A stretch of 64,000 bases of DNA from an uncultured Pseudomonadales bacterium (lineage in GTDB: Bacteria; Patescibacteriota; Microgenomatia; UBA1400; MFAQ01). A program made the translations under genes and the position numbers. Within the stretch, counting starts at the first letter, position 1. Each line of letters starts with the position of its first letter. Shown here one piece after another: positions 1 through 60,726 of this stretch. A model generated the notes under the pieces. That model ran no database searches and was not told the DNA's origin. It saw nothing but the letters and a program-made list of their open reading frames with translations. The stretch is taken from positions 149,278-213,277 of the forward strand of contig CAZENT010000001.1 in assembly GCA_964513845.1 (NCBI GenBank). Direction: 5' to 3'.

Positions 1-1
1 C

Positions 2-247: not shown

Positions 248-251
248 TAGT

Positions 252-3982: not shown

Positions 3983-4015
3983 TTATATGCTAAGTTTGCA
4001 ATACAATATATTGGA

Positions 4016-5932: not shown

Positions 5933-5948
5933 ATTGTTACAATGAAAT

Positions 5949-6440
5949 ATGAATAATGTTGAAGTAAGAAAATCTCCCATTCAAGGAACTGGAGTGTATT
6001 CGCTTAAAAATTTTATTGAAGGAGAAATAATATTAAGTATTGATGACTCCCAAGTTGTGACAGATCCTTCGACACTATCAGATGAAGATAATGAGTATAA
6101 CTGCGATTATCTAGATAACGGAAAGGTAGTCTTGATGAAAGATCCGGAGCGTAGTATTAACCACTCTTGTGACCCTTCAACTTACATTAAAACAATTGAC
6201 GGAATCAGAAAAGTTATTGCCAAGAAAAATATAAAAATCGGTGATGAGATAACTTTTGACTATGCCATAAATGGCGAAAACGAGGGATCGTTCGTGTGTC
6301 GATGTGGAAGCGATAGGTGTCGAAAGATATATAACGGAAATTTTTTTAAGCTGCCGATAGAGCTTCAGAAAGAGTATTTACCCTTCCTAGATGATTGGTT
6401 TGTAAACAAGCATAAAGCTGAGTTAGATAAGCTAAAATAA
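5949..6440 (+). CDS. SET-domain protein (putative protein-lysine methyltransferase)
   Basis: NHSCDPS (the SET N-H-S/C motif), the ELTFDY-like FDYAING motif, and a post-SET Cys cluster CRCGSDRCRK. Confidence 0.65.
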   Translation: MNNVEVRKSPIQGTGVYSLKNFIEGEIILSIDDSQVVTDPSTLSDEDNEYNCDYLDNGKVVLMKDPERSINHSCDPSTYIKTIDGIRKVIAKKNIKIGDEITFDYAINGENEGSFVCRCGSDRCRKIYNGNFFKLPIELQKEYLPFLDDWFVNKHKAELDKLK

Positions 6441-7460: not shown

Positions 7461-8282
7461 ATGGAGGATATTCGTCAAAATATTGGCTGGGCGGGACACT
7501 TAAAGCATCGCGGCTGGAAAACGGTGAAACTGAAATCTTCTGATGGTCGACATACGATTCAAGCTTTTATCTTACGGCTTGGTTGGTGGCCATTTTCGAT
7601 GATGAAAATTCAAAGAGCCATTTATGATCCTGATTTTAATGAATTAAAGAGAATTAAAAGAAAATATTGGGTTGTTAACTCAATTGTTGAGCCACAAAAA
7701 GTGCAAAATCCAGAGGCCTTTAGACGAGCAGGCTATCGCCTAACTCGATTCCCGTATTTGGCGATGAGCTCTTACATTAACAACCTGACAAAAAGTGAGG
7801 GTGAGATTTGGTCTGGTTTGTCGGAGAACGCCAGAAGATTAATTAATAAAAATAAAGAGGTAATAATTGAAAAAGCGAGCCCAAAAGAGTTTTGTAAATT
7901 TTGGAAAAAGTCATCAAAAATCTGGATTATGCAGCCAGCAGAAGTGGAAAATTTGATCAAAAGTTTCAAGGGAAAAGTGAGATTAACCATGAGTCGAGTT
8001 GGAAATGAGTATCACTCCGGACTGATGGTGGTTTATTCAAAAGACACAGCTAACTATTACATGACTTGGACGAGCGAGCTAGGCAGATTGTCTGGAGCTC
8101 ATTACAAATTGGTATGGGAGGAAATGCTTGAAGCAAAAAGAAGAAAGATGAAGTATTTTGATTTTGAAGGGGTATTTGATCCTCGTTGGCCACAAAAAAA
8201 GTGGAAAGGTTTTACGGAGTTTAAACGACGTTTTGGGGGAAAATTGGTGCAGTTTCCTGGAGGATTTTTTCGTTGGCTGTAG
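7461..8282 (+). CDS. FemAB-family protein (paralog 2, shorter)
   Basis: C-terminal KLVWEEMLEAKRRKMKYFDFEGV resembles the FemAB/lipid II aminoacyltransferase C-terminus. Sits directly after paralog 1, separated only by a stop and start codon. Confidence 0.45.
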   Translation: MEDIRQNIGWAGHLKHRGWKTVKLKSSDGRHTIQAFILRLGWWPFSMMKIQRAIYDPDFNELKRIKRKYWVVNSIVEPQKVQNPEAFRRAGYRLTRFPYLAMSSYINNLTKSEGEIWSGLSENARRLINKNKEVIIEKASPKEFCKFWKKSSKIWIMQPAEVENLIKSFKGKVRLTMSRVGNEYHSGLMVVYSKDTANYYMTWTSELGRLSGAHYKLVWEEMLEAKRRKMKYFDFEGVFDPRWPQKKWKGFTEFKRRFGGKLVQFPGGFFRWL

Positions 8283-13787: not shown

Positions 13788-16787
13788 CTATCTTTGGCAA
13801 TGACTTTTAAACGGACAGGTGGCACATTTGGTGAAGTCTTCGGTACGGGTGAAGTCCAGGTCGCGGATCTTAGCAACAGAGTCTTTGATTTCTTTTTTTA
13901 GATTGGTGACATCTTCATCGGAGATAATGAAATTTTCTCGGTGGAAATTATTTTGGGCATCGGGCTCAAGGAAGTCTATCTGCGTTTCTTTAACTTCGTA
14001 CTGAAAAGATTTATCCAGCTCGGCCAAAAGCTGGTAGAAAGTGAGCTGACGTTTGTAATCGCCGTCGGAGTTCTTGGTGTTGCCTTCTATTTCATTTCTG
14101 GTTTTGGATTTTCCTGTTTTGTAATCGATGACACGAACGTGATTGTTGGTATGAGATTGCTTCGTCGTCCCTACTCCTCGCAATGACGGAGTCGTGTACT
14201 CGATGCGGTCAACTTTGCCAGTAAGAGCAATATCATCGAGATGAATTTGAGAAGTGAGAGAGGTGCCGAAGTTTTTTTCGGTAAAAAGACAGGCTGTGAA
14301 ATCTTTGGCATAGTGATCGTAATATGCGGTGAGAACTTTTTTACCATGAGCGAGGCGATCTTTGAAATCGGTTTCGGTCATGATTTCTCTTTGGAGAGCG
14401 GCTTCAAAATCATTGAGGAAAATTTCTTTTGGTTCTAATTTGCCATTATTTAGCTCTCTATACAGCTGCTCAAGGGCGTAGTGAACGGCGGTACCGAAAC
14501 ACATGGCCGGAGCTTTAGCTCTCGGGATCCTGTAGAGATTATCGAGCTTGAATTTATAGTGACAGCGGAGATATGTATTGAGGGAGGTTGGGGAAAACTT
14601 GAGGTCTTTGACTATTTCTCGCAGATACTCGGCTTCGCCATCGTGAAGAGTGACTTCGGCGGCTGGAGACATAAGGGAGGCGAGAATTTTGGTGGCGGCA
14701 CTTTCGAATTTTTTGGTGTCCACTTTTTCAATATTTTCTTTCGGCAAGTCTTCAAGGAACATTGCAGGAAAAATCATTTTTGCAGAGTTTGGATACTCGG
14801 TAGAGCCGGTGAGGTAAAGATTTTGTTTGGCTCTTGTGAGGGCTACATAAAAGAGACGGCGTTCTTCGGCATTCTTATCCTCCTTATCGGTATCTTCGTA
14901 AACGATAATGCCGTCGGGGAGCTTAATCATTTCTCTTTTGGCTTTGTTGCCCCAGTGAGTATCGGCAAAACGATATATGTAAACAGTATGCCACTCGAGA
15001 CCTTTGGCTTTGTGGGCAGTGGTGAGGGTGACAGCGTTTTCATTACCAATGAGGACTTGCTCCTCGAGCTTTAGGCTATTCTCCTCCATGATGCCCAGGT
15101 TATAGACGTAACCAAAAAGATCGAGATTGGGAAAAGAAGCAGACTGAGATTTGACGTCGTCAAAGAGAGTGCCGAAACGATTGAGTTCGATGATGGGCTG
15201 GGGAAGGCTCAAAATATATTCGAGAATCCCCGACTCTTGAAGAATCATCTGGAACATTTCAGGGAGAGTGTGGGTAGCAGCTTTGGAATTCCAAGATACA
15301 AATTTGAGATACGCCTCGACGACTTTATCGTCAAGCTCAGGATGATCGGACTGGAGAGAATCTACTAGGGATTTTCTTTCTTGATGAGCAGCTCTACTAA
15401 TTTTGAGAATGGAAAGTGGATTGAGATGAAAATAGGGATAGTTTAATACGGTAAAGAGGTCGAGATCATCGACAGTGTTGTGCAGAGTCGTGGTTACTCT
15501 TAAAATTTTGAGAAACTGGCTGACAAGAGGGGTGGCCAAAATATTGGTGCCACCTTCGAGGCGATATGGAATGTTTTTTTGTTTGAATAAATTGACCAAG
15601 ATATCGACGTCTTTGTTTTCTTTGACTATCACTGCAAAACCTTTGGGGCTTGCCCCCTTTTCAATTTTTTCTTGGATGTCACTCGTTATGAATTCGTCCT
15701 CAAGAATGGTGGAGCTAAACTCGACGGTTTTGATTTTCTGATCTTTCAAATCGGTATTGGAGTGGAGGGCAGTTTCTCCCAAGAGCGCGGCGGCGGAGTC
15801 GAGAATGGTTTGGGTGGAACGATAGCTTTGATCGAGAACTATTTTGGTGTGACCAGGGAAGGATTTTTCAAATTCGCGAACATTTTCTTTGCTGGCGCCC
15901 TGGAAACGGAAAATACTTTGATTAGGGTCTCCGACCGCAAAGATATTGGCATTTTCTCCCCAAAAACTGGCAAGAGCGAAGATGAGGCGGTTTTGGGCCG
16001 AGTTGGTGTCTTGATATTCATCGACTAAAAGATACTGGAATTTTTCTTGGTAACCCAAGAGAAAATCGGCGTCTTTTTCAAAGGCTTCGACAACCCAGTT
16101 GATCATGTCATTGAAATCAAATCTGCCTAATGACGTCAGTTTGTTTTGATATTTTTCGTAAATATCTAAGAGATCGAGATTTTTGCCAACTAGTTTTTCT
16201 TTCTCGAGACGAGCAGTTTTGCTGAGATTGTCTTTTTCAATTTCATATTCGTCTTTGAGAAGTGAAACCAGTTGCGAGTATTTTTCGATGGTGAAGCCCT
16301 CGCGCTTAAGGTCGGAGATACTACTTAAGATGTAGGGGAGATAAAAGAGGGTGTCACCTATGGGTTTTAAGAGGACGAAGTTTCCCTGCTGCAAAATTTC
16401 TTGGATAATTTGAATCTTTTCTAGATCGGTGACGTTTTGCATACCGGCAGGCTTACTAAATCTCTCTGGATTTTGGGCAATAACATCGGCGCAAAAAGCA
16501 TGAAAAGTGGTGACTTGGACAAGATAGCCGTCTTTACCAATTAGTTTGATGAGACGCTCACGCATTTCTTTGGTGGCCGCTTCGGTAAAGGTGAGGGCAA
16601 GGATGGAGCTGGGGTCAGTGTCAGTTTCTTTGAGAATATTGGCAATTCTGGTGGTGAGAACTTGGGTTTTGCCTGTGCCTGGACCTGCGAGAACCAAAAC
16701 AGGACCCTCGATAGTATCGACAGCTTTTCTTTGCGCGTCGTTTAATTTTTTATACACTGAGTCAAATTCGAGAGTGGTTTGAGGCAT
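13788..16787 (-). CDS. UvrD-like SF1 helicase fused to a C-terminal PD-(D/E)xK nuclease with a Cas4/AddB-type 4-Cys Fe-S cluster
   Basis: N-terminus AGPGTGKTQVLTTR, VDEYQDTN, SFRFQGAS, YRSTQTIL. C-terminal ~250 aa carry RCHYKF ... VIDYKTGKSK (D/ExK) ... CATCPFKSHC (C-x_n-CxxC-x5-C). Confidence 0.8.
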   Translation of the reverse strand: MPQTTLEFDSVYKKLNDAQRKAVDTIEGPVLVLAGPGTGKTQVLTTRIANILKETDTDPSSILALTFTEAATKEMRERLIKLIGKDGYLVQVTTFHAFCADVIAQNPERFSKPAGMQNVTDLEKIQIIQEILQQGNFVLLKPIGDTLFYLPYILSSISDLKREGFTIEKYSQLVSLLKDEYEIEKDNLSKTARLEKEKLVGKNLDLLDIYEKYQNKLTSLGRFDFNDMINWVVEAFEKDADFLLGYQEKFQYLLVDEYQDTNSAQNRLIFALASFWGENANIFAVGDPNQSIFRFQGASKENVREFEKSFPGHTKIVLDQSYRSTQTILDSAAALLGETALHSNTDLKDQKIKTVEFSSTILEDEFITSDIQEKIEKGASPKGFAVIVKENKDVDILVNLFKQKNIPYRLEGGTNILATPLVSQFLKILRVTTTLHNTVDDLDLFTVLNYPYFHLNPLSILKISRAAHQERKSLVDSLQSDHPELDDKVVEAYLKFVSWNSKAATHTLPEMFQMILQESGILEYILSLPQPIIELNRFGTLFDDVKSQSASFPNLDLFGYVYNLGIMEENSLKLEEQVLIGNENAVTLTTAHKAKGLEWHTVYIYRFADTHWGNKAKREMIKLPDGIIVYEDTDKEDKNAEERRLFYVALTRAKQNLYLTGSTEYPNSAKMIFPAMFLEDLPKENIEKVDTKKFESAATKILASLMSPAAEVTLHDGEAEYLREIVKDLKFSPTSLNTYLRCHYKFKLDNLYRIPRAKAPAMCFGTAVHYALEQLYRELNNGKLEPKEIFLNDFEAALQREIMTETDFKDRLAHGKKVLTAYYDHYAKDFTACLFTEKNFGTSLTSQIHLDDIALTGKVDRIEYTTPSLRGVGTTKQSHTNNHVRVIDYKTGKSKTRNEIEGNTKNSDGDYKRQLTFYQLLAELDKSFQYEVKETQIDFLEPDAQNNFHRENFIISDEDVTNLKKEIKDSVAKIRDLDFTRTEDFTKCATCPFKSHCQR

Positions 16788-19398: not shown

Positions 19399-20811
19399 AT
19401 GGGAAAGTATTACATCACAACAACATTGCCGTACATTAATGCGGAACCCCACATCGGGTTCGCCATGGAAATAGTTCGCGCTGACGTAATGGCTCGCTTG
19501 CATAGGGCTATGGGAGATGATGTTTTCTTTAATACCGGCACTGATGAACATGGTCAGAAAATTTATCAGAAGGCAATAGAGCTCGGAATTGATCCACAAA
19601 AATATTGTGATGAATTTGCTGCAAAATTTTCAATATTGAAAGATGCCTTTAATTTGTCCTACAACAGTTTTATTCGCACTACAGATGAGCATCACATTAA
19701 AGCGGCGCAGGCGTTTTGGAAACTGTGTGACGAACATGGCGATATATATAAAAAGAACTACAAAATAAAATATTGTGTTGGATGCGAATTGGAAAAAACT
19801 GATTCTGACTTGACTGATGGCAAGTGTCCGATTCACCCGAATTTGGAACTGGAAATCCGCGAGGAAGAAAATTATTTTTTCAAGTTTTCAAACTACGCCG
19901 ATAAATTGCTTGAACTATATAAAAATCAACCCGATTTTGTGCAACCCGATTTCCGCCAAAATGAAATGAAAGTTTTTGTGGATAATGGTTTACAAGACTT
20001 TAGTATTTCGCGTTTGAAAACAAAAATGCCTTGGGGAGTTGAAGTTCCTGGTGACCCTGATCAGGTAATGTTCGTCTGGTTCGATGCTCTTGTAAACTAC
20101 ATTTCTTGTCTGGGTTGGCCCGAAAATAAAGCCAGGTTTGAAGAGTATTGGCCTGGAGTGCAAATTTGCGGAAAAGATAATCTTCGTCAGCAAACAGCGA
20201 TGTGGCAAGCAATGTTGATGTCAGCCGGACTACCTACCTCAAAACAAGTCTTGGTTGAGGGTTTTATCACTTCCGGGGGAGCAAAAATGAGTAAAAGTTT
20301 GGGGAACGTAATCGATCCTCTCGAGTATGTAGAAAAATACGGAACTGATGCGGTGCGCTATTTCTTAACAGCGGAGCTGTCTGTCTTTGAAGACTCAGAT
20401 ATGACACGTGAGAGATTTGAAGAAGCATTTCAAGCGAGTTTGGCGAATGGAATTGGCAACTTGTGTGCCCGTGTGGCGGCCATGTCGGAAAAAGAAAATC
20501 TTAAAGTAGCTTCCGAAAAATTAAGCATCAGAAAAGAAGTGGTGGAGAAACTTTCAGAATATAAATTTGATGAAGCGATGGCCTTGATTTGGGAAGAAAT
20601 CAGAAAAGCTGATGCTTTAATTAATCAAAGGCAGGTATGGAAGCTTGAGGGAGACGAAAAAAATACTTCCTTGACTGAATTGGTAAAAATGATTCGACAA
20701 GTTGGAACCGATTTGGTTCCTTTTATGCCCACGGCGGCGGAAAAGATTTTGACTCAGTATGGTGTGGAGGAAATTAAAAAAACAGAAAACCTGTTCCAAA
20801 GACTTCCATAA
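19399..20811 (+). CDS. metG: Methionyl-tRNA synthetase (short form) with a noncanonical HIGF in place of HIGH
   Basis: PYINAEPHIGFAMEIVRADV ... TGTDEHGQKI, zinc knuckle YCVGCELE ... GKCPIHP, a KMSKS motif, and a C-terminal anticodon-binding helical domain. Confidence 0.85.
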   Translation: MGKYYITTTLPYINAEPHIGFAMEIVRADVMARLHRAMGDDVFFNTGTDEHGQKIYQKAIELGIDPQKYCDEFAAKFSILKDAFNLSYNSFIRTTDEHHIKAAQAFWKLCDEHGDIYKKNYKIKYCVGCELEKTDSDLTDGKCPIHPNLELEIREEENYFFKFSNYADKLLELYKNQPDFVQPDFRQNEMKVFVDNGLQDFSISRLKTKMPWGVEVPGDPDQVMFVWFDALVNYISCLGWPENKARFEEYWPGVQICGKDNLRQQTAMWQAMLMSAGLPTSKQVLVEGFITSGGAKMSKSLGNVIDPLEYVEKYGTDAVRYFLTAELSVFEDSDMTRERFEEAFQASLANGIGNLCARVAAMSEKENLKVASEKLSIRKEVVEKLSEYKFDEAMALIWEEIRKADALINQRQVWKLEGDEKNTSLTELVKMIRQVGTDLVPFMPTAAEKILTQYGVEEIKKTENLFQRLP

Positions 20812-21591
20812 ATGTTAATTGATACGCACTGTCATCTGACAGACCCGAAAATTACAGACATTAAAGATGTGATTGTGAAGTCTCGTGAAGCTGGTGTGAA
20901 GCAAATGTTTTTACAACCGACTGATATTGAGGAATCAAAAAGAGTAATTGTCGTGGCTGAACAAGAGAGTTTATACGCCATGGTAGGAGTGCAACCCGAG
21001 TTTTTGGATACTGTGATAGATATTGATCAAATGATTTACGAGATGGAAGAAATGATAGGAAAATCAAAAAGGGTGATTGGGATAGGAGAGATTGGTTTGG
21101 ATTTTTATTGGGATAGAGAGAAAACAACAAAAGAGAAACAAATGAAGGTGTTTAGGGCACAGATGGAGCTGGCGGTTCATTTGAAGCTACCGGTTGTTAT
21201 TCATATGAGAAATGCAGAAGAAGAAATGAAGGAGGTGATCAACTCGATGAAGAAAGTGCCTATGGGTGAGTTTCATTGCTTTGGAGGTAGTGAGGAATTT
21301 TTAAAATACGCTCTTGAAAAGGGATTTTACATTGGCTTCGCAGGGAACATTACTTTTAAATCCGCTCACGAACTTAGAGCTCTACTGAAAAAAGTGCCTC
21401 TAAACAGACTTCTATTGGAGACAGATAGCCCGTATTTATCCCCTGAACCTGTTCGAGGAACAGTAAATATTCCTGCGAATGTTAAAATAATAGCTACAGC
21501 GATTGCAAAAGAGCTGAGTTTAGATACCCAAAAATTAATTGAACAAACCGGAAAAAACGCCATATGTTTGTACTCCTTAGACATCTCTTAA
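20812..21591 (+). CDS. tatD: TatD-family metal-dependent DNase/hydrolase
   Basis: MLIDTHCHL N-terminus, GEIGLDFYW, and HMRNAEEE regions. Confidence 0.85.
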   Translation: MLIDTHCHLTDPKITDIKDVIVKSREAGVKQMFLQPTDIEESKRVIVVAEQESLYAMVGVQPEFLDTVIDIDQMIYEMEEMIGKSKRVIGIGEIGLDFYWDREKTTKEKQMKVFRAQMELAVHLKLPVVIHMRNAEEEMKEVINSMKKVPMGEFHCFGGSEEFLKYALEKGFYIGFAGNITFKSAHELRALLKKVPLNRLLLETDSPYLSPEPVRGTVNIPANVKIIATAIAKELSLDTQKLIEQTGKNAICLYSLDIS

Positions 21592-23069
21592 AAAAATATC
21601 CTCATGGTAGTCAAAGAGCCTTAGAAATATTACCCGGATTTGTAAGCTGGATGTTTATCCTTTTTCCTGTATGGGGATCGATTTTTTGGCCTGTGGGAGT
21701 GGCCTATTTCATCATTTCTTTTAATGTTTATTGGCTTTATCGATCTCTTACCCTGTCGGTTGCTTCAGTAATGTCTTATTTCCGAATAAAAGCGGCGGAA
21801 AAATATGACTGGATGGGTGACGTTGAGGGTTTTGCTGATTGGAAAGATGTAAAACACGTAATCGTAATGCCTACATACAAAGAACCAGGCGATATCTTAA
21901 TGAGAACCTTCAAGGCTCTTGAGAATCAAACAATTGGACCAAAACAAATTATCCCAGTCCTTGCAATGGAAGCAAGAGCAGGAGAGGAAATAAATAATAG
22001 TAGAGTAAAACAACTGGAGGAAGAGTTTAAAGAAAAGTTTGCAGATATCATCTACACATATCACCCGGCCAATCTCACTGGTGAGGTAGTAGGAAAATCG
22101 AGTAATGCCGCTTGGGCGGGATTGCAGATTCGGGAGGCCTTAAAAAAACACAAGGATTGGGATATCGAAAAGATGACTATTTCTTCGGTTGACTGTGACG
22201 TAGCACTCCATCCAAATCATTTGGCTGCTCTAACATATAATTTTTTGGACGACCCAAATCGATATCACAAAATCTGGCAGGGGGCGATTGTTTTTTACAA
22301 CAACATCGAGCGTATTCCATGGCCAATGAGAGTGTTTAACAGAATTGCATCCGTGAACAACATGGCCCAACTTTCCCGACCGGATCGATTAATAAACTTT
22401 TCGACATACTCGATGAGCTTACGATTAATGGATGAAATTGATTACTGGGACACTGATGTGATTCCTGAGGATTACCGCATATTTTTTAAAACATATTTTG
22501 CGACTGGTGGAAAGGTTGAAGTGGAGCCTTTATACGTTTCAGTGTATGCGGATGCAGCAGAAGCTGATGGTTTCTGGAGAACATATACAAATACGTACGA
22601 ACAGGTTAAACGATGGGCTTGGGGGGCTTCGGATGATTCGTATATCATCAAACGTTATATTATGGACACAAAGGCGCCTTTTTGGGACAAAACAATTCGT
22701 GTTTTTAAAGTAATTGAGGATCATTTTATGTGGCCGGTAAACTGGTTTATTATCACGGTGGCCGCAAATCTTCCCCCTCTTTTGAACCCCACATTTTCCA
22801 GAACGGTGATTGGAAAAACATTACCTCAAGTCTCCTCGGCCATCTTAACCCTGTCTTTGATCAGCTTGGTGGCGATGATTTTGATCGACCTTAAAGCTAG
22901 GCCAAAAGTAAAAGGTCTGCCATGGTGGAGAAAATTTGTTTCACCTTTTGAGTTTGTGCTATTACCAGTCGTGGGTTTCTTTTTCTCTGCCCTGCCTGGA
23001 CTAGATGCTCATACCCGGCTAATGATGGGAAGATATATGGAGTACCGCGTTACTGAAAAAAAGGCCTAG
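21564..23069 (+). CDS. Membrane-embedded processive-type GT2 glycosyltransferase
   Basis: N-terminal TMs; VIVMPTYKEPGDIL (GT-A DxD region), VDCDV, Q-x-x-R-W as EQVKRWAWG, and C-terminal TMs. Confidence 0.6.
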   Translation: MFVLLRHLLKKYPHGSQRALEILPGFVSWMFILFPVWGSIFWPVGVAYFIISFNVYWLYRSLTLSVASVMSYFRIKAAEKYDWMGDVEGFADWKDVKHVIVMPTYKEPGDILMRTFKALENQTIGPKQIIPVLAMEARAGEEINNSRVKQLEEEFKEKFADIIYTYHPANLTGEVVGKSSNAAWAGLQIREALKKHKDWDIEKMTISSVDCDVALHPNHLAALTYNFLDDPNRYHKIWQGAIVFYNNIERIPWPMRVFNRIASVNNMAQLSRPDRLINFSTYSMSLRLMDEIDYWDTDVIPEDYRIFFKTYFATGGKVEVEPLYVSVYADAAEADGFWRTYTNTYEQVKRWAWGASDDSYIIKRYIMDTKAPFWDKTIRVFKVIEDHFMWPVNWFIITVAANLPPLLNPTFSRTVIGKTLPQVSSAILTLSLISLVAMILIDLKARPKVKGLPWWRKFVSPFEFVLLPVVGFFFSALPGLDAHTRLMMGRYMEYRVTEKKA

Positions 23070-23097
23070 ATATACTTGCCTGATATATACTCAAGTT

Positions 23098-23445
23098 GTG
23101 GCAGAAAGTAAAAAAATACCAACATCCGTAGTACTTTTTTGGACAGGAATATTTCTGGTTGTAATTATGGGAGGAGTATTAGCCCTGTTTTGGAATAAGC
23201 TGCCACCCCAACTACCCTGGTTGTATTCGTTTCCGTTTGGCGAAAAACAGCTGATAGACAAGATCTGGTTTGCGGCAATTTTTGCCGGAACAGGAATTGC
23301 TCTTGTGACAACTAGGGTAATAGCTAACTGGGCAGGCAAGGATGACGTGACGGTGCAAAACACAGTAATGATTGGGGTGATGACGGCCGTTGTCTTGATG
23401 GCGGCAAGCTTTTTCCGAATTATGACAATATTCCTCAACGTATGA
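23098..23445 (+). CDS. Small 3-4 TM membrane protein (possibly GtrA-like flippase accessory) in the glycopolymer cluster
   Basis: Hydrophobicity and position between the GT2 and WecA-like genes; it overlaps the next gene by 4 nt. Confidence 0.35.
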   Translation: MAESKKIPTSVVLFWTGIFLVVIMGGVLALFWNKLPPQLPWLYSFPFGEKQLIDKIWFAAIFAGTGIALVTTRVIANWAGKDDVTVQNTVMIGVMTAVVLMAASFFRIMTIFLNV

Positions 23446-24515
23446 ACCCAGCTGTAATGATCACAGCGGTTCCTTTTTTAATCGCCCTTGTGATTAGCTT
23501 GATGGTGACTCCTTTAACGATTTTGTTTTTCAAAAAAAGGGGCTGGATGATCGATCCAAAGAAAAATCCACATCCGGCGCATATTCACAAAGAACCGGTG
23601 CCAAAGGGAGGTGGAATTCCCATCTATTTCGCAGTACTAGTGACGGTAATGCTGCTTTTGAAACCTGACAATCACCTAACCGCGATTGGGGTGGCCGGAC
23701 TTTTGACCTTGATTGTGGGTCTGATTGATGACGTTAAAGGTATGAGCCCATTTCCGCGATTGGGAATGAATTTTTTGGTGACGGCGATAATTGTGGGATC
23801 AGGAATTGGTATTGCCTATATCAGCAATCCTTTTGGTGGGGTAATTGATTTGTCGAAACTCAAACTGGGATTTGACTTTTTTGGAGCACATCATGAAATT
23901 TGGATACTGGCGGATTTATTTGCTTTGCTCTGGATTCCGTCTCTGATGAACGCGATAAACTGGTCTTCGGGAGTTGATGGGCAAATTAGCGGAGTAATTA
24001 CGATTGCCGCCGCGGTATTGGGCTTGATTTCTTTGAACTTTAGCGCGGATATTACTCAATGGCCTGTGGCAACTCTGGCTTTTGCAACGGCGGGCGCTTT
24101 TGCGGGATTAACGGTGTTTCACTTTTACCCACAGAAAATTATGCCCGGATACTCGGCAACAAGTTTGGCTGGATTGCTTTTGGGTGTAATTTCTATTTTA
24201 GCCACGGCGAAGGTGGGCGCTTTGATTATCGTTTTAGGAATTCCCCTGATAGACTTTGTGTATCTTGTGATAAAGCGAATAATGTCCGGAAAATCACCCG
24301 TATGGGGAGATAAGAGCCATTTACATCATAAATTGTTGGATCTGGGCTGGGGAAAGAGGAGAGTGGCCTTGTTTTATTGGTTTGCCGCATTGGTGTTGGG
24401 AGTTGCGGCTTTGAGCTTCGAAGCTAGAACGAAGCTCTTAATCATGATAGGATTGGTAATATTAATGACAGTATTTATCTTATGGCAGTACTCATCGCAC
24501 TATTCAAAACAGTAA
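23442..24515 (+). CDS. Polyprenyl-phosphate N-acetylhexosamine-1-phosphate transferase (MraY/WecA GT4 family)
   Basis: LIDDVKGMSP (DDxxD) and NAINWSSGVDGQ (NAINxxDGxDGL-like) with ~10 TM helices. Confidence 0.75.
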   Translation: MNPAVMITAVPFLIALVISLMVTPLTILFFKKRGWMIDPKKNPHPAHIHKEPVPKGGGIPIYFAVLVTVMLLLKPDNHLTAIGVAGLLTLIVGLIDDVKGMSPFPRLGMNFLVTAIIVGSGIGIAYISNPFGGVIDLSKLKLGFDFFGAHHEIWILADLFALLWIPSLMNAINWSSGVDGQISGVITIAAAVLGLISLNFSADITQWPVATLAFATAGAFAGLTVFHFYPQKIMPGYSATSLAGLLLGVISILATAKVGALIIVLGIPLIDFVYLVIKRIMSGKSPVWGDKSHLHHKLLDLGWGKRRVALFYWFAALVLGVAALSFEARTKLLIMIGLVILMTVFILWQYSSHYSKQ

Positions 24516-25414
24516 GACCTAGACAGTGGTTGAAAAACTTTGCTTTGTATGGAGCTTTAATTTTTACTGGTCTTTTGTATCAAAAAGGTGCATTTGGATT
24601 GGTGACACAGGCCTTTTTTGTATTTACAATTCTTTCTAGTGCCACGTACATTTTTAACGATCTGCTGGATATAAAAACAGACAGATTACACCCTTTCAAA
24701 AAAAATAGACCAATTGCCTCGGGAGCCCTTCCGATTCCGGTGGCATTATTTGCCCTTGTTGTAGGAGTGTTTGTTGGCTTGTCTTGGGCGTATACCTTAA
24801 ATTTATACTTCTTCATAAGCTGTTTGGTTTACCTCTTTATTCAAGTGCTTTATACAGGCTATTTAAAGAAGGTGGCCATTGTAGACGTAATTGTGATTGC
24901 TTTGGGGTATTTGATTCGTGTATACGCCGGGGCTTTTGTTATTTCTGCCCACATGGATGTGTGGTTCTTGCTAACGATCATTTCGGCTTCATTATTCCTA
25001 GCTGTGGGAAAACGAAGAGGGGAAATGACAATGATGATGGCTCAGGGTAATGGAGCTTCAACGAGAGAAGCGCTAAAAAGCTACACTGAAAAACTGCTGG
25101 ATATATATACAGCCATGTTTGCAACAGCAACCTGGATTACGTATTCTTTGTTCACCTTCAATCATCCAAAAATCGTGCCAGATGGTAGAGCCCTGTCTTT
25201 AATCTCGATCTTGCCAAAAACTTTGATATCGGAAAAGTGGATGATGCTGACCATCCCGTTGGTTGTATACGGAATTATGCGATACCTCCAGCTGATTTAT
25301 GAAAAGAATGAAGGAGAAAGTCCTGAGCGTGTTTTGCTTTCAGACAAACCGCTAATACTTACGGGAGGATTGTTAGTGGTGACAACTATCGGAGTCTTGT
25401 ACTATATTGGCTAA
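24482..25414 (+). CDS. UbiA-family prenyltransferase, decaprenyl-phosphate phosphoribosyltransferase (DPPR synthase)-like
   Basis: NDLLDIKTDRLHPFKKNRPIASG (NDxxDxxxD plus the RLHP...NRPIA block typical of Rv3806c-type enzymes) with ~9 TMs. Confidence 0.65.
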   Translation: MAVLIALFKTVRPRQWLKNFALYGALIFTGLLYQKGAFGLVTQAFFVFTILSSATYIFNDLLDIKTDRLHPFKKNRPIASGALPIPVALFALVVGVFVGLSWAYTLNLYFFISCLVYLFIQVLYTGYLKKVAIVDVIVIALGYLIRVYAGAFVISAHMDVWFLLTIISASLFLAVGKRRGEMTMMMAQGNGASTREALKSYTEKLLDIYTAMFATATWITYSLFTFNHPKIVPDGRALSLISILPKTLISEKWMMLTIPLVVYGIMRYLQLIYEKNEGESPERVLLSDKPLILTGGLLVVTTIGVLYYIG

Positions 25415-25416
25415 CT

Positions 25417-26310
25417 TTATTTAATCAGCTTGGCGTAGGTGGAAGAAACGAAGCCCCATTTGCCACTTAGATACTCGATATAGTACCAGCTGGCGGTAGA
25501 GTCTTCAGCTTTGTAGTTGAACTTGTCCCCAGGATTAACCTGAGCCAGCTCGACACCTGTAGTTGAGGCTGCGTCCCTGACTCTTAAAAATCCTGTAGGG
25601 GTGGTAAGAATCTCAATGTAGGGCTTTACCAGGTCAGCAGAGGCGGTTGCTTGTTTGGGAAGCGGAGTAATGACTGTTTTGGTGGGTGTAGGCGTAATTA
25701 GGCCGGCTGAAGGGGTGGCAGAAGCAATTGTTGGGGTGGGGGTGGGAGTAATATCAAGAGCGGCCATGGTGAAGTTCAAAATTAGTCGATATCCAGGCTG
25801 AACTGAGGCGTTGACGATTTTATCTTGGAAACCCGGGTTAGTGAAGGTAAAGACATGAGGGCCGGATTCGATATCGATGCTCTTGGGTGAGAAACCTTCA
25901 GGCTTGCCATCAACACTAATCGTGGCGCTGGCCGGAAGACTGACTATACTCACAGCGGCAGCCTTGTTATTACTTAGTTTTTCAAAAGACAGAGTGTAAC
26001 TGTGAGATTTGTCTGGGGTTTCGCCGAATTCGCGATGAACCGTGGTGAGAGTGCCTCCCAAGAGGTCAACCTTGCCCTCCCACGTCTGGCCGCTATCAAC
26101 TGCGGTCATTTGTACGGTGTAGGTGCCTGGTTTTTTGTTGTCTGCATAGTAAGGAGTTTTGCCAACAGACTCACCGTTGACGATAACATTGGCATCGGGA
26201 TGAGCAGTGACTTGAATGCCGGCTTTTTTGGCGAAGGGATTGAGATTACATCCGGCGAGAAAAATTGAAAAGATAAGAGTGGCTAGGAGCCTAGTATAGT
26301 TAGTCTTCAT
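25417..26310 (-). CDS. PEGA-domain lipoprotein with a C-terminal SH3b-like domain
   Basis: Signal peptide and lipobox LAGC, PEGA-like VIVNGESVGKTPY, a TPTPTP linker, and C-terminal WYYIEYLSGKWGFV (SH3b-like). Confidence 0.5.
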   Translation of the reverse strand: MKTNYTRLLATLIFSIFLAGCNLNPFAKKAGIQVTAHPDANVIVNGESVGKTPYYADNKKPGTYTVQMTAVDSGQTWEGKVDLLGGTLTTVHREFGETPDKSHSYTLSFEKLSNNKAAAVSIVSLPASATISVDGKPEGFSPKSIDIESGPHVFTFTNPGFQDKIVNASVQPGYRLILNFTMAALDITPTPTPTIASATPSAGLITPTPTKTVITPLPKQATASADLVKPYIEILTTPTGFLRVRDAASTTGVELAQVNPGDKFNYKAEDSTASWYYIEYLSGKWGFVSSTYAKLIK

Positions 26311-26391
26311 TTGTGTCTATGATAGCAGATTGTGTCAAGTTGGCGAACAACTACAAATTTTTTATCACTAGGGTAAAAATATGTTTAAGTG

Positions 26392-26465
26392 AGGCCGAGG
26401 CGGGATTCGAACCCGCGAATGAGAGTTTTGCAGACTCTTGACTTGGACCACTTGTCTACCCGGCC
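26392..26465 (-). tRNA. tRNA-Cys (anticodon GCA), 74 nt, CCA not encoded
   Basis: Manual fold: acceptor GGCCGGG/CTCGGCC with one G-U pair, discriminator U73, anticodon stem AGAGU/ACUCU, loop CUGCAAA (U33-GCA-A37), T-arm GCGGG-UUCGAAU-CCCGC, and a D-loop with GG. Confidence 0.8.
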
Positions 26466-26620: not shown

Positions 26621-27265
26621 ATGGCATATGTATTGGGATTTATTTATGCCGATGGAGCGGTTGAAGACTGTAGATCGTCTTCGAGAACGTGTTATTTGTT
26701 GTTATCAAATAACGACATTAAAATTCTTAAAGAAATGCTGTCTGTTATGTCTACCGAACAGACTATCCATAGAGTAGACCCTCGAACGATAAAAATACGA
26801 GATAAGGAATATTGGTGTAAGACATCGTACTATGTCAGGATTGGAAACAAAATAATCTACGATGATCTGATTAAATTAGGTCTGTGTCCTCGAAAATCCT
26901 TAGTCATCGAATTACCAGAAATACCTGATAAATATTTTGAATATTTCCTTCGAGGATATTTTGACGGAGATGGGTGTATCAACATTGAGAAAAATAAGAA
27001 GAATAGGGTGAATATTATTTTTACTAGTGGAAGCAAACTGTTTCTTGAACAATTGGCAGAAAAAATTGTTGGCGTGTACCCAAGAATTAAAAGCTCAGTC
27101 TCTTATGGATTTGGGGCATATAAATTGAGATATAACTGGAGAAATGCACTTATGATTGCAGGATATATTTATCGAGATGTGCACAATGCACCATATTTAG
27201 AATACAAATACACTAAATATTTGCATTATTTAAATTCTAGAGTTAATAGAGATTTCCTGCCTTGA
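26621..27265 (+). mobile_element. Free-standing LAGLIDADG homing endonuclease (double-motif, monomeric type)
   Basis: Two LAGLIDADG motifs, LGFIYADGAV and LRGYFDGDGCI, about 100 aa apart. Located between tRNA-Cys and gap, not inside an intron or intein. Confidence 0.75.
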
Positions 27266-32426: not shown

Positions 32427-33347
32427 TTAGTTGCCAGTAAAAATATTCCAAGTGGAAGTTTTCCATTTATTACCTTCTCTGACAAACGATATTGATGTCA
32501 GTTTTCCATTAGGATCATTTTCTATATAAAATTTAATATCAAATTTAACTGGTTCAGTGTTGTAGAAATCTTCCTCTTCTTTCGCAGAATGGTATTCATT
32601 CAAAACTTCGAATGTTTTATATTGCGTATAGACAGTTCCTGGCCAGTCAATATTTTCAACTTGTTTTTGGGCAGATACTGTTAAAAATGACATTGCCTTA
32701 TTTCGATCATTGTTGATAATGCTTTCTGAGTAACCCTGAATAGCCTCACGTAATTGTGTCTTGTTGCTTGGTTGCGGAGATAAACTTATGTCTGCAAATT
32801 TGAAGGTGGAAATAAATTGAGTAAAGGTGGGTAAATCTAAACTCCCAACACCACAACCCGGTCCAAGACATTGAGAATAAGCAACCAACAAGTATTTGTT
32901 GTTGGATAAATTAAATTCTCTTTGCGTTTCAAACGTATTTCCTTTTGGCTTTCCTTCAAAGATTGTTCCTGTAACAATCTCCCCTAATTTAAGTGTAAAT
33001 TGAAATTCCTTGTCCTTTGATCTTGGATCAACCTCAAGTGTCCACATGTTGGGGTACTTGAAACTATAGCCATAGGTTGTATTTGTATAAGTTTTCCAGT
33101 CCGCAGTTACGTCGATGGTGGGGGTGGGAGTTTCAAGGCCAACAGAGGTAATGGCAACAGTTGGAGTTGGGGTAGCGATGGCTGTTGAACTTTCTGTCAT
33201 GGGGACAAATCGAGAGGCAAGAACACCAATGAGGATACCAAAAAGAATTAAGGCAATAACAATTAAAAAGGTTTTTAGAAAGCCTGATTTTTTAGACGAT
33301 AAGGGTGCTGCTGGTGCGGGAGGAAGTAATGGGGGTTGAGACTCCAT
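32427..33347 (-). CDS. Membrane-anchored protein with a Pro/Thr-rich linker and a C-terminal globular domain (hypothetical)
   Basis: TM helix FLKTFLIVIALILFGILIGVLA and a TPTPT linker. The track start at 33701 overlaps the upstream ATPase gene by 410 nt in another frame, so the start is uncertain; M119 at 33347 is one candidate. Confidence 0.4.
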   Translation of the reverse strand: MESQPPLLPPAPAAPLSSKKSGFLKTFLIVIALILFGILIGVLASRFVPMTESSTAIATPTPTVAITSVGLETPTPTIDVTADWKTYTNTTYGYSFKYPNMWTLEVDPRSKDKEFQFTLKLGEIVTGTIFEGKPKGNTFETQREFNLSNNKYLLVAYSQCLGPGCGVGSLDLPTFTQFISTFKFADISLSPQPSNKTQLREAIQGYSESIINNDRNKAMSFLTVSAQKQVENIDWPGTVYTQYKTFEVLNEYHSAKEEEDFYNTEPVKFDIKFYIENDPNGKLTSISFVREGNKWKTSTWNIFTGN

Positions 33348-36300
33348 CTGTGTCGTTACTGGGGTTGTCGTTTCCAGTTGGGATATTTCCTCCAGGGGCG
33401 GGTTCATCTTTGATTGTGGCAGGAAGACTGGCTCCGGGTTCATCGACTGGGGCTGGGAGGGAAACTCCTCTATCGGGGATAGAGAGGGATGAGTCTGGTC
33501 GGCTGACCAGTTCTCCGGCGGAGTGATCGTCTGGTTTGATGGTGCGGGAGGAAGAGTCAGATCCTGTGTTTGAAGAGAATCTTGAGGAAGACTGTCTTGA
33601 GGATCCGGTGTCTGATTTGGGTTCATTTTGGTTGTGGTGATTAATAACTTTTGTTTCTGATGCAAGAATGCCCTTTGTTTTAAGAATCTCAAGGGCAGCA
33701 CTGGTAATTCTTAACTTGCCTCCCTGGGACGAGGATTTGGCTAGCTCAAGAGCCTCAGTGAAACTTACCCATTTGAAATCATTATATTCTTCATCTGAAG
33801 GGAACTTCAAACTACTTGATGAGGAGGTGGCATAGAGAAAATAATAGGTTTTCCCCTTCATGGTGACAGAAACACCGGAGTCGGTTTTTAGATCTTTAAG
33901 TCCTTGTTTGTCTGGTGGAAACTCAATACGATCGACAGACACAAAAGTAGGCTTGAAACTGGTTTGTTTGACAAAATCTTGTCCTAGCTCTTCTGTCATT
34001 TCGCGTTTGAAAGCGTCCGTAAGAGTCTCTTTGTTGTCTACTCCCCCTTGAGGAAGCTGCCATAGATTGTGAATTTTGTGATAAACGAAAAGAATTTTGC
34101 CGGAATTTATGAAACAACCAACTACGCTGGGACGGAAACCTTCTTGACGGTCTTTGTCTAGATCTTCCACGTTTGGCTCTTTTGAGGCGTTGGTCGGAGA
34201 TTGCCGCGTCGCTTCGCTTCTCGCAATGACGGGAGTTGGTTGAGATACTGTTGAAGCGGGTTGATTGCTTGGCGAGGATTGCCGCGTCGGAGTATCTTCT
34301 CTTTTCTGAGATGGACTGGTGTGCGATGCCGTGGTTGAGGCAGATAATGAGGGGACCTGAGAAGGGTTTTGAGTACGAGTATCAGTTTGTGCAGGAAATG
34401 ATTGAGGCGTATACGGTTTGGGGGATGATTGTTGAGGGCGATATGGCGTAGCTTGGGAATACGATCGATCTTCACCCCGAGGTCCTTGAGGCTTAGATGA
34501 TGATCGATAGTCTTGTTTGGGAGGAGGTGCGCTGGGAGAATAGACTGAGGCTTGCGTCATGTCGAGAGCTTCGGTTTTGCGGTAGTACTGCTCTTCGCTC
34601 ATGGCGATAATTTTTTCGCGATTGCCATTTTTGTTTTCTGGGAGAGGGAGGGTGGTGGCAGCAAAAGGATTAGAAATGGAAGCGTTGACGGAAATTTTGA
34701 CGATGATTTGATATCTAGCTAACCCAACAAGATCATCTTGGGTATAAAAATTACCGAGCTCGTTCATCAGACGATTAGCATCGGCGGCGCCAACAACAAA
34801 ACTAATGAGGGTACCGGCGTTTCCAAAAATAGCATCTTGAATTTCTATGGGAAGCTGAGCGGTGTACTGGTTAGCAAGAATCAGGTTCAAACGATACTTA
34901 CGAGCCTCGGAGAGAATTTTGATAAAGGATGTGGTGGCAAAGTTCTGGAACTCATCAACATAAAGAAAGAAGTCTTTTCTTTCGCTTTCGGCCATGTTGG
35001 CACGATTCATGGCAGCAATTTGAATTTGAGAGATAAACATGGCACCCAGAAGAGCGGCGTTGTCTTCTCCAATTTTGCCCTGAGGTAGATTGAGGATGAT
35101 GATTTTGCCGCTATTCATCAAGTCTTCAAAATCAACCGTGGACTTGGGATGACTAATGATGTCACGAATTGTGGGTGAAGTGATGAATTGACCAACTTTG
35201 TTTAGAATAGGAGAAATAGCTTCGGACTGGAATTTTTCGGAATATTTGTCGTATTCATCGTGCCAGAAATTGTGAAGCACTGGATCTTGAACTGCGGCAA
35301 GATATTCTTCGCGCCAAGGTTTGTTGGTGAGAAGTCTGGGAACATCTAGAAGAGTGGCACCAGGCTTGGCTACCAAAGTGAGAAGGGTGTTTCTGAGAAT
35401 GTATTCCAAACGAGGACCCCAGGAGTTGCCGTAGAGTTTACTGAAAATGGACACGATACCGGAAGCAACTAGCTCGGCATAGGCTTGGTTTTTGACGTAA
35501 AGAGGGTTCAGGTGAAATGATTTACCAACAACAGAAGGATCAAGATAAGCAACGTCGTTAATTCTGTCTGCTGGGATGTAATCAAGAAGATGTTCGGCCG
35601 TGTCGCCGTGAGGATCAACGAGAGCCATGCCCTCTCCATGACGAATGTCACTAATAGCCATGTTGGCCAAAAGAGTGGATTTACCGGTACCGGATTTACC
35701 CAAAACGTAAACGTGACGACGGCGATCTTCCCCTTTTTTCATGCCAAAAGAAACCATGCGATTTTTGTATTCGGTTTTGGCAAAGAAATTAATTTCGTGC
35801 TTTTCTTCTTCAGACATGTCTTCGGCAATGGGAAGATTGGCTGGCGGTTCTCCACGCAGAGTTTTACCCCAAGCAATACCTTTGATGTTGGCAAGATTAA
35901 AGCCCGGAAGATGATAGATGGCGGCAATTTCGGCGTAGTTTAGATATTGATATTGATTTGAGTAACGAGCGGAACGATCAATGATCATTTCACGAAGTTT
36001 TTTGAGTGAGGTAGGGCTAACAACCTTGAGTCTAAAACTGTTGCCTTCAGACAAAGAATAGGTACCAAAGGCGGCCGAAATTTGAGAGATAAGCTGATTT
36101 GAAGAGGTAACGCTTGAGGAAACAGCAACCAGACGAATATCACAACCAAAAGCTTGATAAACGAGTTTCTTTTCAATAAAAGGCTTTTGGGTACTGGGCT
36201 GAGCCTTTACGCCCTCAGCGACAGGAGCGGGTTCTAATGACTTTCGAAGGGCTTTTTGCCAGTTTACTGGAGCAGCAAATAGACAGATTTGGATGACTGC

Positions 36301-36735
36301 AGCTTGGCCAGATGGAATCCTGGAAAGGCTACCCAAAATAGCGGTCATTTGATCAACTTTCTCGTCTTCAGTAACATTTATAGGAAGAGATGAGGGTGCA
36401 GAAAGAACCAACTGACCCATCTGAGGCTCTCCATGATTAAGCCAGTCGGCAAGATAATCCTTCATGGGGGTAATGAGAGCTGTGGGGTACTGAGCGGCAA
36501 TTTGAGAACGAACTAGATGCTCCAGACGCTCTGGACAAGCGATTACAAAATAGGTTGTTTGGTTGAGATTAGCTATCTCAAGAGTAATAGTTTCGTAGGT
36601 ATTGAGGAGCCTATCCATAAAACTAGCCTTGAGAGAAGACTTAATTGAAGCTAAAAACTCGACAAAAGCAGCTTGGCCCGTGAGCGAGTCTTTGGCAGGA
36701 CGAATCTGCAGTACCGAATATTTGGGCAAGGCCAT
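33292..36735 (-). CDS. FtsK/HerA/VirD4-superfamily P-loop ATPase (DUF87/TrwB-like) fused via a ~130-aa disordered linker to a canonical NUDIX hydrolase domain
   Basis: Walker A VYVLGKSGTGKSTLL plus ALVDPHGD; Walker B FFLYVDEFQNFAT; coupling-protein-like ARKYRLNLILANQYTAQL. S/P/Q/T-rich linker. Nudix box GGVDNKETLTDAFKREMTEELGQ (G-x5-E-x7-REUxEExGU). S-rich C-terminal tail. Confidence 0.75.
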   Translation of the reverse strand: MALPKYSVLQIRPAKDSLTGQAAFVEFLASIKSSLKASFMDRLLNTYETITLEIANLNQTTYFVIACPERLEHLVRSQIAAQYPTALITPMKDYLADWLNHGEPQMGQLVLSAPSSLPINVTEDEKVDQMTAILGSLSRIPSGQAAVIQICLFAAPVNWQKALRKSLEPAPVAEGVKAQPSTQKPFIEKKLVYQAFGCDIRLVAVSSSVTSSNQLISQISAAFGTYSLSEGNSFRLKVVSPTSLKKLREMIIDRSARYSNQYQYLNYAEIAAIYHLPGFNLANIKGIAWGKTLRGEPPANLPIAEDMSEEEKHEINFFAKTEYKNRMVSFGMKKGEDRRRHVYVLGKSGTGKSTLLANMAISDIRHGEGMALVDPHGDTAEHLLDYIPADRINDVAYLDPSVVGKSFHLNPLYVKNQAYAELVASGIVSIFSKLYGNSWGPRLEYILRNTLLTLVAKPGATLLDVPRLLTNKPWREEYLAAVQDPVLHNFWHDEYDKYSEKFQSEAISPILNKVGQFITSPTIRDIISHPKSTVDFEDLMNSGKIIILNLPQGKIGEDNAALLGAMFISQIQIAAMNRANMAESERKDFFLYVDEFQNFATTSFIKILSEARKYRLNLILANQYTAQLPIEIQDAIFGNAGTLISFVVGAADANRLMNELGNFYTQDDLVGLARYQIIVKISVNASISNPFAATTLPLPENKNGNREKIIAMSEEQYYRKTEALDMTQASVYSPSAPPPKQDYRSSSKPQGPRGEDRSYSQATPYRPQQSSPKPYTPQSFPAQTDTRTQNPSQVPSLSASTTASHTSPSQKREDTPTRQSSPSNQPASTVSQPTPVIARSEATRQSPTNASKEPNVEDLDKDRQEGFRPSVVGCFINSGKILFVYHKIHNLWQLPQGGVDNKETLTDAFKREMTEELGQDFVKQTSFKPTFVSVDRIEFPPDKQGLKDLKTDSGVSVTMKGKTYYFLYATSSSSSLKFPSDEEYNDFKWVSFTEALELAKSSSQGGKLRITSAALEILKTKGILASETKVINHHNQNEPKSDTGSSRQSSSRFSSNTGSDSSSRTIKPDDHSAGELVSRPDSSLSIPDRGVSLPAPVDEPGASLPATIKDEPAPGGNIPTGNDNPSNDTDGVSTPITSSRTSSTLIV

Positions 36736-60721: not shown

Positions 60722-60726
60722 ATCAG

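Follow-up and report, generated by a model that had tools for sequence, protein, structure and literature searches.

We analysed a stretch of 64,000 nucleotides (the window) from contig CAZENT010000001.1 of an assembly labelled as an uncultured Pseudomonadales bacterium (GCA_964513845.1, positions 149,278 to 213,277 of the forward strand), which carries the cluster of four membrane-protein genes described here. All four lie on the + strand, in a co-directional run that follows the genes for methionyl-tRNA synthetase (MetRS) and TatD. The original prediction, made from the DNA letters alone, had named three of them, a processive family 2 glycosyltransferase (GT2), an initiating transferase similar to WecA and MraY, and a UbiA-family enzyme similar to decaprenyl-phosphate phosphoribose (DPPR) synthase, and had suggested that they contribute to a lipid-linked pentofuranose- or galactofuranose-type cell-wall polymer in a lineage outside the Actinobacteria. 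These three open reading frames (ORFs) are real and have exactly the predicted ends; a small ORF at 23098-23445 had been overlooked, and the true count is four. The claim that neighbouring genes overlap by 4 to 34 nt stands for the transferase and UbiA-family ORFs (34 nt) and for the small ORF and the transferase ORF (4 nt), but not for the GT2 and transferase genes, which are separated by 372 nt occupied by the small ORF; the TatD and GT2 genes overlap by 28 nt. The host does lie outside the Actinobacteria: it belongs to the Candidate Phyla Radiation (CPR), since proteins encoded in the window are 70-100% identical to those of metagenome-assembled genomes (MAGs) so named (Collierbacteria/Woesebacteria-like, of Microgenomates type). 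The genes to which we refer are the following, where PNPT stands for polyprenyl-phosphate N-acetylhexosamine-1-phosphate transferase and PPPRS for polyprenyl-phosphate phosphoribosyltransferase, both predicted activities.

252-2207, + strand: DUF2298 membrane protein (Pfam PF10060, 285 bits)
2208-3278, - strand: LCP (LytR-CpsA-Psr) protein (Pfam PF03816, 110.5 bits)
19399-20811, + strand: MetRS, the upstream end of the tight run
20812-21591, + strand: TatD, directly upstream of the GT2 gene
21564-23069, + strand: GT2, hyaluronan/cellulose-synthase-like, 501 aa (Pfam Glyco_trans_2_3, PF13632, 32.3 bits)
23098-23445, + strand: small three-helix membrane protein (from the ORF list; no Pfam match)
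23442-24515, + strand: putative PNPT of the WecA/MraY type, 357 aa (Pfam Glycos_transf_4, PF00953, 69 bits)
24482-25414, + strand: putative UbiA-fold PPPRS, 310 aa (Pfam UbiA, 70 bits)
25417-26310, - strand: lipoprotein with an LAGC lipobox, PEGA repeats (51.5 bits) and a C-terminal SH3_3 domain (29.7 bits)

The last gene of the run very probably encodes a phosphoribosyltransferase that uses phosphoribosyl pyrophosphate (PRPP) as its substrate. The NCBIfam hidden Markov models (HMMs) for DPPR synthase score 211.7 (NF008977), 199.5 (NF008978) and 143.8 bits (NF008976) on this protein, and the model NF006088 ("UbiA family prenyltransferase", 482 positions) scores 150.4 bits, whereas the models for prenyltransferases proper (UbiA, MenA-type, CyoE, ChlG, DGGGPS, MqnP and EboC) all remain at or below 48 bits. 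In a sequence search of the PDB its best solved relative is Rv3806c, the DPPR synthase of Mycobacterium tuberculosis (8j8j, E 1.2e-36), with 36% identity over the aligned core, compared with E 2.6e-3 for the archaeal UbiA protein ApUbiA (4od4). The motif NDLLDIKTDRLHPFKKNRPIASG, on which the original prediction had relied, is present at residues 59-81. Within the first motif, N-D-x-x-D-x-x-x-D, the residues N59, D60, D63 and D67 are invariant in our homolog alignment and correspond to N73, D74, D77 and D81 of Rv3806c. The cryo-EM structure of Rv3806c places Mg2+ at N73 and D77 and the ribose at N73 and Q135, and has the 5'-phosphate contacted by K28, Y70 and Y157 and the pyrophosphate by R22, K87, R90, Y138, K143 and K208 (PMC10994848); the same paper states that UbiA prenyltransferases do not keep the sites that bind phosphoribose. 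According to a HMMER alignment together with the homolog alignment, 11 of these 12 PRPP-binding positions are identical in the window protein (R12=R22, K18=K28, Y56=Y70, N59=N73, D63=D77, K73=K87, R76=R90, Q121=Q135, Y124=Y138, K129=K143 and Y143=Y157, window residue first), and the sole mismatch is K208, which is replaced by Glu next to a conserved Arg.

That the protein is instead an ordinary aromatic or lipid prenyltransferase, similar to MenA, UbiA, CyoE or DGGGP synthase, is extremely improbable. It does match the Pfam UbiA family, and its close relatives have been named automatically either "decaprenyl-phosphate phosphoribosyltransferase" or "4-hydroxybenzoate polyprenyltransferase"; however, the PRPP-specific residues are conserved and the scores of 200-212 bits for DPPR synthase against at most 48 bits set the protein apart from MenA and UbiA, the enzymes with which the original prediction had asked that it be compared. 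This placement was judged from the gaps between HMM and PDB scores, and a quinone prenyltransferase identity was rejected on the HMM scores and the active-site residues. Since the scores lie just under the NCBIfam equivalog cut-offs, we use the name PPPRS, the class that includes Rv3806c, PSPA7_6246 and Citrobacter youngae ORF15-C, and do not call the protein a decaprenyl-specific ortholog. At 310 residues, it lacks a fused phosphatase domain. It belongs to a large family, in which 1,105 clusters (at 50% identity) match the PPPRS at E<=1e-30.

Directly before the PPPRS gene, and overlapping it, lies the gene for the PNPT. Like WecA, TagO and MraY, the protein has a Glycos_transf_4 domain, DD and HxHH motifs and about 10 transmembrane helices; all cluster-linked homologs keep D96-D97 and H293-L-H295-H296, and E. 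coli MraY (8g01) matches it at E 6.6e-7, so that the description as a WecA/MraY-like transferase was well founded. Against the NCBIfam models, it scores 75 bits with wecA (cut-off 326) and 50 bits with mraY (cut-off 192). Structures of MraY and DPAGT1 have identified the Asp of P-x-x-x-F-M-G-D as the third catalytic, Mg-binding residue of the superfamily. In the alignment with 8g01 this Asp falls on Y237 of the window protein, and column 237 holds Tyr in 55, Phe in 8 and Asp in 4 of 67 cluster-linked PNPTs; Phe is the residue of the WWE3 lineage, and Asp is kept only in loci of Curtissbacteria type (L039, L041, L042 and L071 in our numbering). The subfamily also differs from WecA, TagO and MraY in the first Asp of NxxNxxDGxDG, which is Ser, and in an obligate small three-helix partner, which is fused to the PNPT in WWE3. 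We regard the protein, on its sequence features, as a predicted PNPT that is a divergent member of the superfamily and an ortholog of neither WecA nor MraY.

The partner is the product of the small ORF, for which three helices are predicted and in which a loop, LPP..P..YS.PWGE.QL, is conserved; a Pfam scan gave no match, with no GtrA or SMR signal, and one relative has a match to DUF1648 (E 0.0015) that is below threshold. We prefer GTG 23098 as its start codon, because the ATG at 23167 chosen by gene callers would truncate the first helix. Homologs lie directly upstream of the PNPT gene in 47 of the 61 related loci that could be scored (below). In addition, eight WWE3 loci encode PNPTs of 500 aa whose residues ~25-125 are matched (E 1e-7 to 4e-13) by an HMM that we made from 56 unfused copies of the small protein. 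In WWE3 the two proteins are thus joined in one chain, and this fusion points to the small protein as a subunit or accessory partner of the PNPT.

The GT2 has two N-terminal and about four C-terminal predicted transmembrane helices, and all of 50 homologs keep its motifs D210xD212, P301-E302-D303 and Q347-x-x-R350-W351. A sequence-level search of the PDB gave no match with this protein, and we therefore turn to an AlphaFold2 (AF2) model (pLDDT 89, pTM 0.88), for which the best Foldseek match is the hyaluronan synthase (HAS) of a Chlorella virus (7sp9, E 7.5e-10, TM 0.57, 487 columns), followed by Xenopus HAS1 and then by BcsA; the non-processive membrane GT2 PcManGT is also among the matches (E 2.5e-8). 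The motifs (QVKRW, ED and DxD) and the fold match to HAS and BcsA place the GT2 in the membrane-embedded processive synthase type, as had been proposed. It shares with class I HAS and BcsA-type synthases the fold, the transmembrane architecture and the DxD, ED and QxxRW motifs, but its sequence identity to them is only ~14%, and the gene has no PilZ or accessory-subunit context here.

We scanned a genome collection with the PPPRS alignment, which gave 80 loci (L numbers), and found neighbouring genes by BLAST with the proteins of the window and of the intergenic block; about 20 kb per genome was covered, and linkage was counted in those 61 related loci whose sequence reached 5 kb or more upstream. 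A PNPT gene lies no more than 2.5 kb upstream of the PPPRS gene in 48 of these loci, a GT2 gene is nearby in 46, and the PEGA/SH3 lipoprotein gene is directly downstream and convergent in 36. The small, PNPT and PPPRS genes form a stable core, found together in lineages as far apart as Collierbacteria and WWE3 even though their proteins are 26-48% identical and there have been local rearrangements. In WWE3 the order is TatD, GT2 (26% identity), 500-aa PNPT, response regulator, PPPRS. By contrast, PPPRS homologs outside the CPR (L078-L089), including those of Chloroflexi, have no GT2 or PNPT neighbours.

In 33 of the 61 loci one or two further genes are inserted between the GT2 gene and the small gene, and these encode polytopic membrane proteins, predicted glycosyltransferases of the C superfamily (GT-C), which fall into two types. 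Type B belongs to the GT-C family PMT_2 (44 bits, cut-off 26). Type A proteins (about 470-520 aa, polytopic, with invariant EPYWYGDEG...DNKPP; for example L019:7156-8553, L029:6970-8538, L021:6978-8462 and 20+ other loci) match nothing in Pfam and nothing in a sequence-level profile search of the PDB. When the two types are compared with hhalign they are related with 95% probability (E 4e-8, 382 columns), and the EPYWYGDEG of type A is aligned to the WRDEA of type B; type A is thus probably, as judged from these alignments, an undescribed GT-C family. Loci of Curtissbacteria type have both types, and the block of GT-C, small, PNPT and PPPRS genes is kept even where the GT2 gene is distant or absent (L029, L039-L042).

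The window itself contains no homolog of either type, but it does encode the DUF2298 protein, for which the original prediction had suggested a GT-C-like character. A sequence-level search of the PDB gave no meaningful match; for its AF2 model (pLDDT 89.7), all 17 of the 17 Foldseek PDB matches with E<=1e-3 are GT-C proteins (DPY19, STT3/PglB and AftA, 8if8; best TM 0.46-0.49), and the modelled fold is accordingly that of a GT-C. No relationship to the in-cluster GT-C families was found with hhalign (probability <=10%), so DUF2298 is not a displaced copy of a lost in-cluster gene. The DUF2298 gene abuts the LCP gene, to which it is convergent; both had been named in the original prediction, and Pfam supports both. 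DUF2298 and PPPRS genes also occur on the same contig in contigs of 905,580, 835,282, 282,426 and 688,609 bp. DUF2298 is a plausible candidate for the enzyme that uses the lipid-linked donor outside the cytoplasm here, and a possible role for the LCP protein is that of the ligase that joins a lipid-pyrophosphate-linked glycopolymer to peptidoglycan. The PEGA/SH3_3 lipoprotein may be a wall- or glycan-binding partner, although its link to the system is uncertain. Our literature search returned nothing relevant on the function of DUF2298 or DUF1648.

Pentofuranose systems built from a PPPRS and a GT-C are already known outside the Actinobacteria (PMC11127046), a point missing from the original prediction. 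Kelly et al. (PNAS 2024, PMC11127046) described widespread three-component systems: a PPPRS, which comes with a phosphatase, works with a flippase and a GT-C to add ribofuranose (Ribf) or, with epimerases, xylofuranose (Xylf) or arabinofuranose (Araf) outside the membrane. In Citrobacter youngae O1/O2 these components are ORF15 (PPPRS-PRP), ORF14 (a MATE flippase) and ORF12, a GT-C of GT136 (PMC11127046); pilin arabinosylation in Pseudomonas and arabinan synthesis in mycobacteria are relatives of such systems. The CPR cluster resembles them in coupling a UbiA-fold PPPRS, here a putative user of PRPP, to GT-C genes, which are inside the cluster in most CPR relatives; neither kind of system needs an epimerase, and Ribf is the sugar expected where it is missing. 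It differs from them in having no fused PRP/HAD phosphatase and no in-cluster MATE or SMR flippase, in the families of its GT-Cs (PMT_2-like, the Pfam-less family or DUF2298), in its tight coupling to a PNPT with a small partner and, in most loci, to a GT2 of the synthase type, and in its CPR host with a monoderm-like envelope; in the window's own clade the in-cluster GT-C is missing as well. Our literature searches turned up no paper that ties a PPPRS or such a cluster to CPR bacteria, although absence there is not proof of absence.

Taken together, we lean towards the view that Microgenomates and WWE3 glycosylate their envelope by a lipid-carrier-dependent pathway, a CPR variant of the pentofuranose systems, and that the cluster encodes the half of this pathway that works at the cytoplasmic face. 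The UbiA-fold enzyme would move 5-phosphoribose from PRPP onto polyprenyl phosphate, a step for which sequence support is strong. A phosphatase would then take off the 5'-phosphate, and the resulting polyprenyl-phosphate-ribofuranose would be flipped across the membrane. Outside the membrane, a GT-C would use it as donor, as we infer because GT-C genes are embedded in the cluster of most relatives; the candidate in the window is DUF2298 (252-2207). The PNPT and its small three-helix partner would make a polyprenyl-pyrophosphate-linked N-acetylhexosamine (HexNAc) primer, on which a glycan may be built or at which it may be accepted, and the LCP protein may ligate the product to peptidoglycan. 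The GT2, the most loosely linked member, would make and export a beta-linked backbone.

Several observations weigh against this pathway. The PPPRS narrowly misses both equivalog cut-offs (211.7 vs 234 bits for NF008977 and 199.5 vs 207 for NF008978), and a canonical metal-ligand Asp is missing from the PNPT in most lineages, so that its activity may differ. We found no 5'-phosphatase, flippase or epimerase in the window or in ~10 kb around the clusters of annotated relatives; the phosphatase and flippase genes may lie elsewhere in the genome. No in-cluster GT-C of type A or B is present in the window's clade (L001-L006, L010-L016 and L086), which has lost it, and DUF2298 and LCP lie ~21 kb from the cluster, to which co-occurrence is their only link. 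In one locus (L009) a GT2 gene is present without the other cluster genes nearby. Finally, the synteny is broad, with RmuC, TrpR, MetRS and TatD genes upstream and PEGA, GAPDH, PGK and GroEL genes downstream, and gene order alone therefore overstates the functional linkage; the stronger arguments for linkage are the overlaps, the WWE3 fusion and the recurrence of GT-C genes within the block.

Which pentose is carried bears directly on the original prediction, which had invoked decaprenyl-phosphate arabinose (DPA) and a galactofuranose-type polymer. A pathway of that mycobacterial type, in which the phosphoribosyl lipid is epimerised and polymerised into an arabinogalactan-like wall polymer or a galactofuranan, is improbable here. 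The resemblance of the PPPRS to Rv3806c, the presence of AftA among the GT-C matches of the DUF2298 model and the co-occurrence of a PNPT and an LCP protein, as in arabinogalactan assembly, would all fit it, and the logic of the M. tuberculosis pathway (PNPT primer, lipid-phosphate-pentofuranose donor, GT-C transfer, LCP ligation) is indeed alike; however, AftA fits the DUF2298 model no better than DPY19 and STT3 do, and no linked DprE1/DprE2, Rv3807c-like phosphatase, Rv3789-like flippase, GlfT or Glf was found, and the lipid carrier is presumably C55 in the window's host rather than decaprenyl as in M. tuberculosis. Our DprE1 probe gave no match, either in the window or in the ~10 kb around the cluster in the CPR loci that it covered (more than 60, about 70). 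The probe is validated by its match in a Hydrogenedentota MAG (L084), where a DprE1 homolog (38.5% identity, E 1e-103) is directly upstream of a PPPRS homolog (L084 coordinates 3093-4532 and 5275-6195); this pair likely represents a genuine arabinofuranose-type pathway outside the Actinobacteria. Domains of FAD-oxidases, SDR proteins or epimerases, HAD, PAP2, MATE, SMR/GtrA and Wzx are likewise absent both from the window's ORFs of at least 150 aa and from the Pfam-annotated flanks (~10 kb) of relatives, and those ORFs hold no Glf domain; a PAP2 motif scan was also negative, which is weak evidence since the regular expression was strict. The possible Glf-like fragment that had been proposed at 1-3.3 kb is not there, since bases 1-3982 are filled by the DUF2298 and LCP genes and the end of a TIM gene, apart from bases 1-251, which hold no long reading frame. 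With no epimerase linked to the cluster, the arabinofuranose/DPA claim and the galactofuranose claim are both unsupported and ribofuranose is the default; the pentose is thus most likely ribofuranose, and the general idea of a lipid-linked pentofuranose was right.

Two other readings dispute that the genes act together as proposed above. In one, which we consider rather unlikely, the neighbours serve separate products: the PPPRS and a GT-C would pentosylate proteins, be they surface proteins or type IV pilins, in the manner known from Pseudomonas aeruginosa, and the PNPT and GT2 would belong to unrelated glycans. Pilin glycosylation with Araf that depends on a PPPRS is a precedent (PMC11127046), the type B GT-Cs resemble PMT_2, a family that includes protein O-mannosyltransferases, region-wide synteny could account for the conservation of the neighbourhood, and the GT2 gene can stand alone (L009). 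On the other hand, the small, PNPT and PPPRS genes overlap and remain linked in Collierbacteria and WWE3 alike, the GT-C insertions always fall within the block, and no pilin gene is adjacent. In the other reading, which is very improbable, the GT2, GT-C and small protein would be a hexose-modification set of the Gtr/CsbB-GtcA-YfhO type, with the GT2 making polyprenyl-phosphate-hexose, the small protein acting as flippase and the PPPRS running in parallel. The order GT2, GT-C, small protein in most Microgenomates does resemble GtrB-GtrC-GtrA sets, and the PcManGT match would suit such a GT2; but the GT2 has an invariant QxxRW and ED and matches HAS and BcsA over its full length, including the transmembrane channel region, and the small protein is predicted to have three helices, not four, lacks any GtrA or SMR signal and is fused to the PNPT, not to the GT2.

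A bolder extension of the proposed pathway, which we offer as rather doubtful speculation, is that it builds a peptidoglycan-anchored secondary wall polymer in Microgenomates and WWE3 by mycobacteria-like logic with different parts: the divergent PNPT with its obligate small subunit would prime a lipid-pyrophosphate-HexNAc anchor, GT-Cs of families that Pfam does not model would take ribofuranose from polyprenyl-phosphate-ribose and polymerise or attach it outside the membrane (a "ribofuranan" or a ribofuranosylated glycan), the HAS-like GT2 would supply a backbone and the LCP protein would ligate the product. If true, ultrasmall epibiotic bacteria would have, across a whole lineage, an envelope component that has not been described before. 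More generally, CPR/Patescibacteria live attached to host cells and their surface chemistry is almost unknown; the compact conserved gene set suggests that the envelope of a whole CPR superphylum carries a pentofuranose derived from PRPP, and extends the PPPRS/GT-C pentofuranose pathway to a deep-branching lineage. It also flags two uncharacterised families, the Pfam-less GT-C family and the DUF1648-like partner of the Asp-less PNPT, and corrects the "arabinogalactan-like" reading as unsupported.

Further genes of the window include dnaA, dnaN, tRNA synthetase genes, GroEL and YidC. Its other envelope genes are two FemAB-family genes, a Wzy_C/O-antigen-ligase-like gene (30.0 bits, just under the cut-off), a DUF4012 gene and a VanW/PG_binding_4 gene, which lie at 6444-8282, 50406-51548 (- strand), 47084-49729 (- strand) and 40550-42265. 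A 1147-aa HerA/DUF87 and NUDIX protein is encoded within 33292-36735 (- strand), and a VirB4/TraG-like ATPase (60727-62574) adjoins a 914-aa protein without a family match (57977-62574, - strand for both); the ATPase and its neighbour may be components of a type IV secretion system. A UvrD/PD-(D/E)XK helicase of 999 aa (13788-16787) has no intein, whereas its ortholog in Collierbacteria relatives (L005/L006:1-890) has one (Hint/Intein_splicing) and is 1362 aa long.

Between 18.4 and 26.7 kb, a scan for promoters and terminators did no better than on shuffled sequence. Just beyond the lipoprotein gene, a free-standing LAGLIDADG endonuclease ORF (26621-27265, + strand) lies beside tRNA-Cys (26391-26465, - strand); it is also present in L001 and L002 and absent from the same position in L003-L006, which makes a mobile insertion probable. 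Every 2-kb bin of the window (1-64000) has a positive GC skew, and the cumulative curve climbs monotonically from end to end without a sign change around dnaA (54719-56101) or dnaN (56408-57517); a Microgenomates genome reportedly shows an unusual strand composition disparity, according to the title of a paper on it (PMC7143001). Finally, MAGs titled "uncultured Pseudomonadales", "Gammaproteobacteria", "Spirochaetia" or "Saccharibacteria" (among them L011, L012, L015, L017 and L021-L023) hold the CPR-syntenic region at up to 85% protein identity, and their taxonomic labels look wrong.

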